Source of the DNA: Holosporales bacterium
GTDB lineage: Bacteria > Pseudomonadota > Alphaproteobacteria > Holosporales > CAZGKG01
Length of the DNA stretch: 64,000 nt
Direction: 5' to 3'
Assembly (NCBI GenBank): GCA_044361745.1
Contig: JBIKIF010000008.1
Span: forward strand, 133-64,132
Part shown: one piece after another, positions 41,759-45,015 of the stretch
How the letters are laid out: each line of letters opens with the position of its first letter
Position numbering within the stretch: position 1 is the first letter of the stretch
Notes under the pieces: generated by a model
What the model was told of the DNA's origin: nothing
Databases searched by the model: none
The model's input: only the letters and a program-made list of their open reading frames with translations
Made by a program: the position numbers and the translations under genes

Positions 41759-42041
41759 CGTTCCCTCTCAGTGCAAATGTCCCCCTCAAAAGGGGGGCCG
41801 ATCATATTCAAAAACAAATTATCTTATACGACACTCCTTCCCTGGATACAACGGGTGCCGAAAAAATCACCGGATGAGATGATTCAAAGTACTCAAAACA
41901 TTTATTTTTATCAAAACAACTGTATTTATGGGAATTTTTTTAAAAAAAAAGTCTTTTTCGGTGATTTACAGAATTTTAAGCGGGGCCTGCTTTAATCGAA
42001 AAAGACGAAAACAGTTTACTTAGAAAGAACGGGGTTTTTTG

Positions 42042-44030
42042 ATGGTCGAAAGCATCCAACACGTCCTCAGTCGTGTTCGTCCCCCACGTGTGCAAATTAC
42101 GTATGATGTGGAGATTGGCGGCGCAATAGAGAAAAAGGAGTTGCCCTTTGTGGTCGGCATTATTGCTGATCTTGCAGCAAAGAGCAATGTCGCGCAACCG
42201 GTTTTGAAGGACCGTAAGTTTATTCAGATTGACCGAGACAATATTGGTGCAATCATGACGGCTTTGGCTCCTCGATTGGCTTTTGGGGTTCGAAAAACTC
42301 TCGGAACCACGACCGCTCTTTCAGGGGAAGACTCTGAGGAAGCTTCGGGTTCTGGAGAAAAACTCCAGGTGGAGCTGTTCTTTGGCAGCATGGAGGATTT
42401 TAGTCCTTATAATGTGTTGATGCAGGTCGGCGACCTCAAAGCATTGTATGAGGCCCGCACCCGCTTGACTGACCTGGTTGGAAAGCTGGACGGGAACGAT
42501 GCTCTGGATCATCAGCTGATGGCGATCATCGAAGACAGCGCCTTAAAGGGGACTCTGACCGGTGAAGCCAAAGGGGATCCAACAGCTGCCGCTGCGGGGA
42601 CCGATCAGGTGGTGACCGACGGCAAAATGCTGAAAGGTGAAGGGGAGGAAGCCCTGCCCGCCGCCCGCGGTATGATTTTTGAGTTTGTGCGTCAGCTGGA
42701 ATTGGCGGGTGAAACCCCGATTGGCGACACCTATTTCTTTATCATGCAGCGGATCTCTTTTATTGATGGCGAACTTTCAAAGCAATTGGATGAGGTGCTC
42801 CATCACCCGGATTTCCAAGCCCTGGAAGGAAGCTGGCGAGGTCTGAATTATTTGGTCATGAAGACAGAAACCGGTGAGTTTCTTAAGCTGAGACTTCTTC
42901 AACTCTCCTACAAAGAGTTTGCGAACGATCTGGAGAAAGCCATCGAATTTGACCAAAGCTTGATGTTCAAAAAGATCTATGAAGAAGAATACGGCACCTT
43001 CGGGGGCCATCCATTCTCCTGCATGGTTCTGGATTACGCCTTCTCTCGCAATCCCAAAGATGTGGACGTTCTATCCAAATTTTCTGGGGTGGCGGCGGCT
43101 GCTCATATTCCTACTTTGGCTGCAGCAGGCCCGGGTTTGTTTGACATGGAAAGCTTTACGGAGATGAGTGGTCCTCGGGATCTCACCAAGTTGTTTGAAA
43201 CCACAGACGCCATCAAATGGAATAGTTTCCGCCTCAGTCCGGACTCCCGGTATGTCAGCTTGCTGCTGCCGCGGGTTCTCATGCGCTCTCCCTACGGGAA
43301 GGACAGCTGGCCTATTGATGAATTCGATTACGAAGAAACCGTGGACGGGGAACGCAACGATAAATTCTGCTGGGGAAGCCCCGCTTTTGTCATGGCCACC
43401 CGCATTACCCACGCCTTCTCCTTGTATCAGTGGACGGCGGCGATCCGAGGTGTTGAGGGCGGTGGTCTGGTGGAAGATCTACCAGTCTACAGCTTCAAGA
43501 GTGCCCGCGGTGATATGATCATGAGAACCCCAACGGAAACCGTGATTACAGATCGCCGGGAAAAGGAACTGAGTGACCTCGGGTTCTTGTCTCTGTGTTA
43601 TTGCAAGGGTACGGATTATGCCGCCTTTTTTGGAGGCCAGACCACCCAGAGGCCTAAAAAATACAACACGGATGAGGCCAACGCCAACGCCCTGATTTCT
43701 ACCCGCCTGCCCTATATGTTGAACGCTTCTCGTTTTGCTCATTATATCAAGGTGATCATGCGAGACAAGATCGGCAGTTTCATGAGTCGGGAAGACGTGG
43801 AGGCCTACCTTCAGACGTGGTTGGCGGATTATGTCTTCCTCTCTGACATGGGAACCCAAGAGATCAAAGCTAAGTATCCTCTTCGGGAAGGCAAGGTCTA
43901 CGTCCGGGATGTTCCTGGGAAGCCAGGATCTTACAAGGCGGTGATTTTCCTGAGACCCCACTTCCAATTGGAAGAACTATCGGTCTCTCTCCGCTTGGTG
44001 GCAGCCTTGCCTGCCCCTGCCGGTGGTTAA
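42042..44030 (+). CDS. tssBC: Fused type VI secretion contractile sheath protein (TssB/VipA-like N-terminal part joined to a TssC/VipB-like C-terminal part)
   Basis: One uninterrupted ORF (track 42039..44030, 663 aa). Residues ~10-170 carry TssB motifs: 'RVQITYDVEIGGAIEKKELPFVVGIIADL', 'KFIQIDRDNIGAIMTALAPRLAF' and 'LQVELFFGSMEDFSPYNV..LYEARTRLTDLVGKLDGND'. Residues ~210-663 carry TssC motifs: 'LHHPDFQALEGSWRGLNYLV', 'GGLVEDLPVY', 'PTETVITDRREKELSDLGF', 'RFAHYIKVIMRDKIGSF' and 'FLRPHFQLEELSVSLRLVA'. Confidence 0.85.
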   Translation: MVESIQHVLSRVRPPRVQITYDVEIGGAIEKKELPFVVGIIADLAAKSNVAQPVLKDRKFIQIDRDNIGAIMTALAPRLAFGVRKTLGTTTALSGEDSEEASGSGEKLQVELFFGSMEDFSPYNVLMQVGDLKALYEARTRLTDLVGKLDGNDALDHQLMAIIEDSALKGTLTGEAKGDPTAAAAGTDQVVTDGKMLKGEGEEALPAARGMIFEFVRQLELAGETPIGDTYFFIMQRISFIDGELSKQLDEVLHHPDFQALEGSWRGLNYLVMKTETGEFLKLRLLQLSYKEFANDLEKAIEFDQSLMFKKIYEEEYGTFGGHPFSCMVLDYAFSRNPKDVDVLSKFSGVAAAAHIPTLAAAGPGLFDMESFTEMSGPRDLTKLFETTDAIKWNSFRLSPDSRYVSLLLPRVLMRSPYGKDSWPIDEFDYEETVDGERNDKFCWGSPAFVMATRITHAFSLYQWTAAIRGVEGGGLVEDLPVYSFKSARGDMIMRTPTETVITDRREKELSDLGFLSLCYCKGTDYAAFFGGQTTQRPKKYNTDEANANALISTRLPYMLNASRFAHYIKVIMRDKIGSFMSREDVEAYLQTWLADYVFLSDMGTQEIKAKYPLREGKVYVRDVPGKPGSYKAVIFLRPHFQLEELSVSLRLVAALPAPAGG

Positions 44031-44063
44031 GAGAATAGATGAGAGAGATGAAAGGAAAGAATA

Positions 44064-44660
44064 ATGGGTAGCAGCATGGCTTCTGTTCAGCAACAAAGCA
44101 GAGATTTTCTGGCTGAGGTTCTTGAACAAGCACGTAAAGTTAAAGAGAAGTGCGGCGGCAATGTCGGAAATCTCATGCAGGTGTGGAAAGTGGATGGAGA
44201 TCTAGCTTCCAACATCGAGGGGTTTAAAGATTGTGCGCGATGGTACGCCTATTCAGCAGAAATCACCTCAGGGGGTGCGGATGGAAACCGAACTTCCGGT
44301 GCAACGGGTGGTGGCAATTTTTCTGCAGAACCTGTTTGCATCGCATTCCCATCAAATATTCAAGGATTGGGAGCCCTGTTAACAGATTTTGGGACAAACA
44401 AAACACTTGAGAAAATTGAAATAGCAAATCTGGTAGAGTTTTCTGGAAAGATTGTTGCAAGCAGCGTGATTGCATTTGAAAAATGTCAAATCTGCAGCAG
44501 TACACAAACCTTCCAAGGGGACGAAATATCCATTATTTCTTTCAAGTTCCAAAAAGTTGAAAACAAAATGTTCCGTTTTGATGACTCAGGAACAAAAACG
44601 GGTGTGGATGGAGGGTATTTCATTGACTTCGCAACAGGCACATCCGGCCAGTTGAAATAA
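44064..44660 (+). CDS. Divergent Hcp-like (TssD) tube protein candidate
   Basis: It starts 33 nt after tssBC and has an AAAGGAAAG Shine-Dalgarno-like sequence. From Met38 (ATG 44175) the pattern resembles Hcp: 'MQVWKVDGDL..EG', a Gly-rich loop 'TSGGADGNRTSGATGGGNF', 'KTLEKIEIANLV', 'ISIISFKFQKVENKMFRFDDSGTKTG' and 'GYFIDFATG'. This assignment is by eye only. Confidence 0.5.
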   Translation: MGSSMASVQQQSRDFLAEVLEQARKVKEKCGGNVGNLMQVWKVDGDLASNIEGFKDCARWYAYSAEITSGGADGNRTSGATGGGNFSAEPVCIAFPSNIQGLGALLTDFGTNKTLEKIEIANLVEFSGKIVASSVIAFEKCQICSSTQTFQGDEISIISFKFQKVENKMFRFDDSGTKTGVDGGYFIDFATGTSGQLK

Positions 44661-44802
44661 CACCCTTCCTTATCCATCCCTTTTTTCTCCCTCATGCCCC
44701 TGGGCCATCCATTGTGATGGTTTCCGGGGGTTTTTCCCGGGGCAAACTCAAGACAAGCGGTATGAGTTCCTGCGTCTTCACAAAGGAGCGCCTCCCTCAA
44801 AC

Positions 44803-44840
44803 AAAAAAAACCCCGTCTTTTTTAAAAGGCGGGGTTTTAC
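44803..44840. terminator. Bidirectional intrinsic terminator between the Hcp-like gene (+) and the small peptide gene (-)
   Basis: AAAACCCCGTC (44807-44817) pairs with GGCGGGGTTTT (44828-44838). That gives an 11-bp stem including one G-U pair, with A/T runs on both sides. Confidence 0.75.
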
Positions 44841-44862
44841 GTGTTGTGCAAGAAAAAAAGCC

Positions 44863-45015
44863 TTAGGCTTTTTTCTCTTCTTTTTTATCTTCGTCTTCTT
44901 CATCTTCTTCTTCTTCGGCGGCGGTAGCTGCCTCAGGGACCTTCTCATCAGCCAATACGGAAGCGAAAGGAGCAACAGAAGCGAATGCCAGAACAGCAGC
45001 AAAAATTTTTGTCAT
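44863..45015 (-). CDS. Small secreted acidic peptide (50 aa; below the ORF-track cutoff)
   Basis: Hand translation: MTKIFAAVLAFASVAPFASVLADEKVPEAATAAEEEEDEEDEDKKEEKKA*. GGAGA lies 8 nt upstream of the ATG. The signal peptide ends in an 'VLA|DE' cleavage-like site. The stop is followed by the 44807-44838 terminator. Confidence 0.6.
   Translation of the reverse strand: MTKIFAAVLAFASVAPFASVLADEKVPEAATAAEEEEDEEDEDKKEEKKA

Follow-up and report, generated by a model that had tools for sequence, protein, structure and literature searches.

Why should a sheath gene and a tube gene of a type VI secretion system (T6SS) lie by themselves among housekeeping genes? This question was raised by a 64,000-nucleotide (64-kb) stretch of contig JBIKIF010000008.1, hereafter called the window, in which a fused tssBC gene is followed by an hcp-like gene. 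The first-pass annotation of this DNA had described the pair as a stranded anomaly and had proposed three explanations, namely a highly dispersed T6SS, the last intact relic of a lost cluster, or a pair that works with a non-canonical baseplate or anchor. In the present study, we compared the two genes with domain families, solved and predicted structures, related loci and published systems. The results indicated that the pair very probably serves as the sheath-tube module of an H3-like T6SS that is dispersed over the genome of an uncultured Holosporales-type bacterium. The two genes and the two portions of the sheath are given below, with lengths in nucleotides (nt) or amino acids (aa).

42042-44030, plus strand: tssBC, encoding a single-chain T6SS contractile sheath, a natural TssB-TssC fusion of 662 aa (1989 nt from ATG)
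42042-42605, plus strand: TssB (small sheath subunit) portion of TssBC, residues 1 to about 188
42561-44027, plus strand: TssC (large sheath subunit) portion of TssBC, residues about 174 to 661
44064-44660, plus strand: divergent Hcp (TssD) tube-protein gene, 198 aa, located 33 nt 3' of tssBC and assigned by predicted fold and gene position

The mechanical open reading frame (ORF) of tssBC starts at TTG 42039, and the gene calls of public assemblies start at ATG 42042, which gives the 662-aa product. From this ATG the 1989-nt frame reported in the first-pass annotation was intact, and the reported distance of 33 nt to the hcp-like gene was confirmed. To identify the sheath, the product was compared with Pfam and NCBIfam. 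It was observed that PF05591 VipA matched residues 11-177 (E-value (E) 1.5e-43; 148.7 bits against a cut-off of 24), PF05943 VipB matched residues 237-537 (E 1e-118; 396.3 bits, above the cut-off), and PF18945 VipB_2, a gpW/gp25-like family, matched residues 546-657 (E 1.5e-43; 148 bits, above the cut-off). The NCBIfam equivalogs TIGR03358 and TIGR03355 scored 147.9 bits (cut-off 97.25) and 621.4 bits (cut-off 271.5), respectively, and matches to T6SS-specific families reached E 1e-186. In the comparison with solved structures, residues 1-188 aligned with residues 1-175 of a solved TssB (9n4v_B), and residues 174-661 aligned with residues 7-492 of a solved TssC (9n4v_A; E 4.9e-187). As these alignments show, TssBC consists of two near-complete subunits joined end to end. 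The canonical organisation with two polypeptides was not found, as one ORF runs through the domains with no stop between them. The fusion is a variant of the T6SS sheath family and gives no ground for exclusion from it.

The fused form is shared by the closest database homologues. Among the best 120 (49-100% identical to TssBC), 119 carried all three sheath domains in one chain of 641-762 aa. The lone exception, a 501-aa protein on a 1.9-kb contig, is probably a partial sequence. The named sources were Candidatus (Ca.) Hepatobacter penaei / bacterium NHP-B (65%), Holosporaceae metagenome-assembled genomes (MAGs; 63%) and a Holosporales MAG in the 70% cluster, and the other source labels were Alphaproteobacteria MAGs. 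This type of sheath was kept across more than 100 sequence clusters. The cited literature on the Holosporales T6SS makes no mention of a TssB-TssC fusion, and TssBC could serve as a handy natural single-chain sheath for structural or engineering work.

The second gene is preceded by a ribosome-binding-like motif, GGAAAG, and its product was far harder to identify by sequence. The 198-aa protein gave no Pfam, NCBIfam or PDB sequence match, and the threshold of PF05638 T6SS_HCP was not reached. The canonical Hcp3 of the Pseudomonas aeruginosa H3-T6SS failed to detect the gene by BLAST, and searches of the PDB with the 198-aa protein, both single-sequence and profile, returned nothing meaningful. 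A word-indexed protein search found just two to five relatives. An exhaustive HMMER search of 1.8 billion representatives yielded nine matches, one of which (P0123, a 1772-aa repeat protein) was judged to be due to chance, since it matched through 14 repeat copies.

The relatives nevertheless allowed the protein family to be defined. A 188-198-aa ORF was found directly 3' of the fused tssBC in every relative examined, and these ORFs shared common motifs and 20-27% identity with the 198-aa protein. A hidden Markov model (HMM) built from twelve family members matched members outside the training set at E 1e-10 to 1e-30. At the family level, similarity to known Hcps was faint: 2 of the 12 members touched PF05638 T6SS_HCP (E 6e-4), and an hhalign comparison of the family with three canonical Hcps gave 139 colinear columns at E 0.0018 and 15% probability. 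The gene follows tssC and precedes vgrG in the relatives L005, L006 and L018 and tssE in L008, which is the order of the H3-T6SS.

To examine the fold, we modelled the 198-aa protein with AlphaFold2. The model from a 3-sequence alignment was unusable, with a predicted local distance difference test (pLDDT) score of 48; the model from an 11-sequence alignment reached a pLDDT of 77 and a predicted template modelling (TM) score of 0.73. When the latter was compared with the PDB using Foldseek, T6SS Hcp was present in all 50 matches listed. The best match was 4w64, Hcp1 of A. baumannii (E 1.5e-10), and target-normalised TM scores among the leading matches were 0.73-0.81. In the viral library, phage tube or tube-like matches were far weaker, with E of at least 3.6e-5 and TM scores of 0.3-0.6. 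The model contains an extra N-terminal helix at residues 8-30 (pLDDT 73-85) and a disordered Gly-rich loop at residues 70-83, which account for the length of 198 aa compared with 166-171 aa in the canonical Hcps extracted. As judged from its position and predicted structure, the product of 44064-44660 is an Hcp that is not recognisable by sequence. The 'Hcp-like' label of the first-pass annotation was therefore supported by gene position and predicted structure and found no support in the sequence of the protein itself.

A further observation concerns a related locus, L009 (also L010), in which two tandem hcp-like paralogues of 198 and 193 aa (12244-12840 and 12994-13575) follow the fused tssBC. 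Both L009 copies were matched by the family HMM (E 3e-15 and 3e-21).

The surroundings of the pair in relatives bear directly on its isolation. The fused tssBC and the orthologous 188-198-aa gene recurred together in ten different neighbourhoods, mostly housekeeping, with relatives' sheaths 52-99% identical. In the lines below, each locus is given with the genes upstream of tssBC and downstream of the hcp-like gene; L005 is Ca. Hepatobacter penaei, L018 is a Holosporaceae MAG, and L109 is ENA ERZ19566854.

Window and L109: upstream rpmE; downstream 50-aa ORF and dacA
L003: upstream an unknown ORF; downstream acpP
L005 and L018: upstream an unknown ORF; downstream vgrG, a 232-aa ORF and DUF4280
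L006: upstream an unknown ORF; downstream vgrG, a 228-aa ORF and DUF4280
L007: upstream dnaJ; downstream terC
L008: upstream an Elm1-like gene; downstream tssE
L009: upstream priA; downstream a second hcp-like gene and dnaN
L011: upstream priA; downstream ugd
L115: upstream ybaB; downstream fic

In the window, L003, L007, L009, L011, L109 and L115, the tssB-tssC-hcp block stands alone, away from other T6SS genes. In L005 (7283-7981), L006 (14936-15622) and L018 (12236-12934), ORFs of about 230 aa lie between vgrG and DUF4280. These ORFs have no Pfam match on record and matched YwqK of the H3-T6SS by tblastn, at E of about 1e-11 in L005 and L018 and 1e-9 in L006. Since they are YwqK-like, the H3 order vgrG-ywqK-DUF4280 is preserved in the three loci. 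Other Holosporales MAGs (L019-L022) also showed a solitary VgrG with housekeeping genes around it.

The same arrangement has been published for the lineage. Holosporales genomes have their T6SS genes spread over at least four loci, among them tssB-tssC-hcp; tssK-L-M-A, tssG-F and ywqK-vgrG are separate from that locus, and tssE, F, G, K, L, M and A are retained at other loci in the sequenced members (PMC8163844). Transcription of the dispersed genes has been reported for Ca. Bodocaedibacter vickermanii (Midha et al. 2021, PMC8163844), and nearly every Holosporineae genome, down to the smallest, retains the T6SS (2025 review, PMC11909080). The arrangement in the window is thus ordinary for the lineage, in which an isolated tssB-tssC-hcp locus is the published norm. 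A pair alone among housekeeping genes is what would be expected in a Holosporales-type genome, and therefore no new biology is indicated. According to these results, the highly dispersed T6SS was the supported option among the three, and the view of the pair as a stranded anomaly was not upheld.

Two side observations were made on the related loci. A galU-ugd-pgm-lysR-MFS (major facilitator superfamily) block lies at 25513-31490 of the window, about 10.5 kb upstream of tssBC. In L003, acpP and a 65-aa ORF separate the hcp-like gene from the block (13634-19612), which lies downstream at a distance of at most about 1 kb, and in L011 (13186-15432) ugd-galU lies directly 3' of the hcp-like gene. 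The proteins of the block were 49-74% identical in amino-acid sequence between the window and L003. This placement suggests an older linkage of the block to tssBC-hcp that was broken by local rearrangement. The second observation concerns L029, a metagenome contig in which one tblastn segment spanned both sheath genes, giving the appearance of a fused tssBC; tssB and tssC were found to be distinct genes that share a reading frame. In L029 (2512-3717), the H3-like cluster is contiguous, its tssB and tssC are unfused, and two different ORFs of 175 and 218 aa separate tssC from tssE. The Hcp-like HMM of Holosporales gave weak matches to the two ORFs, at E of about 1e-4 with a very small database.

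Holosporales (Holosporineae) are obligate intracellular alphaproteobacteria of protists and arthropods. For the expression, assembly and target of this T6SS, we infer the following model. The tssBC and hcp genes would form one transcription unit with its own upstream region and its own terminator. Hcp hexamers would stack into the inner tube, and TssBC would polymerise around it as an extended sheath. The baseplate, consisting of TssE, F, G and K with VgrG and a DUF4280/PAAR-like tip, would dock on the TssL/M membrane complex, and these baseplate and membrane-complex parts would be encoded at other loci. Contraction of the sheath would then drive out the tube together with the spike and effectors, the probable targets being the eukaryotic host cell or competing bacteria.

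To search for the remaining parts, we applied Pfam to 20 further window ORFs, comprising all those without a directly readable function, and found housekeeping and envelope families and no T6SS core gene. The window was also searched by tblastn with all 13 core proteins of the H3-T6SS and with Holosporales-type VgrG, YwqK-like, DUF4280 and TssE proteins. TssB (1.5e-50) and TssC (0.0) alone gave matches, and all other queries remained at E of at least 0.035. Both methods indicated that TssA, E, F, G, J, K, L, M, ClpV, VgrG and PAAR are not encoded in the 64 kb, in agreement with the first-pass annotation, which had recognised no other core gene there. Three ORFs of the window were without a convincing family: a secreted-looking 187-aa protein (51016-51579; ratio of nonsynonymous to synonymous substitution rates (dN/dS) 0.40 against L109), a 388-aa membrane protein (53111-54277) with a sub-threshold ApoLp-III match alone, and a 183-aa ORF at the window edge (63414-63965). 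No likeness of these three to a T6SS part was detected by Pfam or tblastn.

The contig of the window, 64.7 kb in length, belongs to JGI metagenome 3300059473 and is also deposited at NCBI. Beyond the window, a scan of genome contigs with VgrG of L005 and L006 gave 11 loci, none from this organism, with two-peptide-pattern seeding of low sensitivity. A 7-sequence VgrG alignment run against metagenome contigs gave 80 loci with a best identity of 34%, none assignable to this genome, and its seeding was likewise of low sensitivity. The other T6SS modules would be present elsewhere in this genome, as suggested by the relatives and the literature.

Several points weigh against a dispersed Holosporales T6SS. 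The low-sensitivity VgrG-seeded scans recovered no other T6SS module of this genome. The placement in Holosporales is a provisional one, drawn from the similarity of the T6SS proteins and the microsynteny with a Holosporales-labelled relative. In addition, the apparatus falls short of the full canon, as ClpV and a clear TssJ are both missing from published accounts of the lineage; the lineage T6SS has been called 'non-standard', with TssJ not recognisable (PMC11909080; bioRxiv 10.1101/719211).

The last of these points is shared by the rival that survives best, according to which this genome lacks the canonical baseplate and membrane complex and the pair works with non-canonical partners, through another anchor or by intracellular action. 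It is in keeping with the lack of any baseplate or membrane-complex gene in the 64 kb, with the recovery of none from this genome, and with a fused sheath and an N-terminally extended Hcp that depart structurally from the canon. However, relatives with the same sheath and Hcp family keep vgrG-ywqK-DUF4280 or tssE next to the pair, sequenced Holosporales keep the baseplate and membrane-complex genes at other loci, and the non-recovery reflects the reach of the searches and is no test of the genome. Nothing was found that favours a non-canonical baseplate for this genome in particular, and we consider this third option of the first-pass annotation unlikely. A stronger form, in which this organism has lost the canonical baseplate and membrane complex and TssBC with the extended Hcp is a minimal two-gene contractile apparatus under strong selection, is very unlikely; if true, the TssBC-Hcp contractile tube would use an unrecognised anchor or act inside the cell.

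Selection on the two genes bears on whether the pair is a relic, all that is left intact of a lost cluster, and has ceased to function in secretion. Such a relic would fit the isolation among housekeeping genes and a lineage known for genome reduction. To evaluate this, dN/dS was calculated by the Nei-Gojobori method against the close relative L109, which has the same gene order and a tssBC 97.8% identical at the nucleotide level. The results showed a dN/dS of 0.075 for tssBC (dS 0.079), as low as that of lipA, lysS and obg, and of 0.26 for the hcp-like gene. The 13 flanking genes with recognised families ranged from 0.02 to 0.30, and two small unknown ORFs had values of about 0.40. The differences between the hcp-like proteins of the window (198 aa) and L109 (188 aa) were mainly at the extreme N-terminus. 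These results demonstrated that both genes are under purifying selection, within the range of the flanking housekeeping genes. Moreover, neither frame was broken in any of the relatives examined, whose sheath identities ran from 52% to 99%, and the unit has its own strong terminator. The relic, which is contradicted by the dN/dS values and by conservation across the sequence clusters, is highly improbable.

A redundant paralogue is harder still to credit. In that case, a complete conventional T6SS with its own tssB, tssC and hcp would lie elsewhere in the genome; multiple T6SS clusters, along with orphan islands of hcp or vgrG, are present in many bacteria, and L009 itself has two tandem hcp-like genes. 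Published Holosporales genomes, however, contain just one tssB-tssC-hcp locus and lack a contiguous cluster (PMC8163844), the best 120 homologues are all of the lineage-specific fused form with no mixture, and purifying selection on the pair is very strong. Finally, sheath and tube folds are common to all contractile systems and phage tubes were among the weak structural matches of the tube model, but an origin in a phage tail or extracellular contractile injection system is effectively refuted by the T6SS-specific sheath families (VipA, VipB, TIGR03355 and TIGR03358) and solved T6SS sheaths, by the Hcp-fold matches (E 1e-10 against T6SS Hcp versus 4e-5 or weaker against viral tubes), and by the Pfam survey of the window ORFs, which contained no capsid, baseplate, tape-measure or tail-fibre gene.

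The boundaries of the unit and its neighbours are listed below. The neighbours named in the first-pass annotation (rpmE-lysS-lipA, the 50-aa secreted peptide, the DD-carboxypeptidase and ychF) were all confirmed.

41537-41758, minus strand: rpmE, upstream of tssBC, with lysS and lipA beyond it on the same strand
41930-42041, plus strand: putative upstream control region of tssBC, about 110 nt conserved with L003, with a 5' leader of about 45 nt
44807-44838, no strand: intrinsic-terminator hairpin closing the tssBC-hcp unit, 14-base-pair stem, folding free energy -22.9 kcal/mol, z -5.0
44863-45015, minus strand: 50-aa ORF whose N-terminus resembles a signal peptide and whose tail is strongly acidic (EEEEDEEDEDKKEEKKA), convergent on the hcp-like gene
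45269-46219: Peptidase_S11 DD-carboxypeptidase gene (dacA), downstream, with ychF beyond it

About 110 nt 5' of tssBC are kept in L003, whose TssBC is 70% identical, despite different upstream genes (rpmE in the window and an unknown ORF in L003). A possible extended -10 element, TGcTTTAAT, lies at 41988-41996 inside this block. Conservation of the block was not found in relatives more distant than L003. A sigma-70 scan gave no two-hexamer site in the rpmE-tssBC gap, and the sigma-54 pattern in this region was no commoner than chance, being rarer than in shuffles. The assignment of a tssBC promoter to this region is accordingly put forward as a tentative reading of the nucleotide sequence.

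At the other end of the unit, none of 200 shuffles was as stable as the hairpin at 44807-44838, which had been described as a strong bidirectional terminator. The hairpin was confirmed, and it could terminate transcription both ways because an A-run lies 5' and a T-run 3' of it. It sits in a 202-nt gap shared with the convergent 50-aa ORF, and a second hairpin (44854-44874) overlaps the stop codon of that ORF. The 50-aa ORF had no family match and is kept in L109 as a 48-aa ORF with 87% identity and a dN/dS of 0.41. Elsewhere in the window, the G+C content of positions 8001-18000 was 0.41-0.45, compared with 0.50-0.57 across much of the window. The genes of this low-G+C segment include a 708-aa histidine kinase, a 740-aa tetratricopeptide repeat protein with a signal-peptide-like start, an ATP-binding cassette permease and a DUF882/M15 peptidase. 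The RNA genes of the window comprised three transfer RNAs and no ribosomal RNA.

Comparison with known systems places the pair within a known pattern. In reduced intracellular alphaproteobacterial genomes, the genes of the type IV secretion system are scattered in several islets and the system is still considered functional; the likeness is one of analogy, as the proteins are unrelated. A closer likeness is found in Ca. Bodocaedibacter vickermanii, which has a free-standing sheath-tube locus with an Hcp recognisable just as 'Hcp1-like superfamily'. Bodocaedibacter has a 513-nt tssB and a 1455-nt tssC as distinct genes (PMC8163844), whereas the window and the Hepatobacter/Holosporaceae-type relatives carry a single tssBC gene of 1.9-2.2 kb. 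Because the two genes are separate in Bodocaedibacter, the fusion marks a sub-clade.

The 'modified T6SS' of Holosporaceae diplonemid endosymbionts (bioRxiv 10.1101/719211; PMC11909080) is likewise reduced yet conserved, with VgrG beside a YwqK-family protein. The T6SS of Holosporaceae/Holosporineae is said to lack the inner tube TssD/Hcp (George et al., bioRxiv 10.1101/719211; PMC11909080). The 'missing' tube is probably present and too divergent for standard profiles, since the gene in the hcp position of the relatives, including Hepatobacter penaei and L018, belongs to the same family and the window member models as an Hcp; this suggestion is drawn from the relatives examined. The 'tubeless' T6SS is probably an annotation gap, which a family-specific profile would mend, and this would change the discussion of the function of the system in symbionts.

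The closest canonical cluster found was the P. aeruginosa H3-T6SS (L112), of subtype i4b, with TssB 52% and TssC 57% identical (TssC over 475 residues). Its blocks are lip-tssK-L-M-A, tssB-C-hcp, tssE-F-G(-clpV) and vgrG-ywqK-DUF4280. Block by block, they match the separated Holosporales modules, and also the string tssBC-hcp-vgrG-ywqK-like-DUF4280 found in L005, L006 and L018. The H3-T6SS differs in that its genes lie together in one contiguous cluster of some 21 kb; its TssB and TssC are unfused, its Hcp3 is recognisable by Pfam and it includes ClpV, whereas in the window the sheath-tube block stands alone within 64 kb and its sheath is fused.

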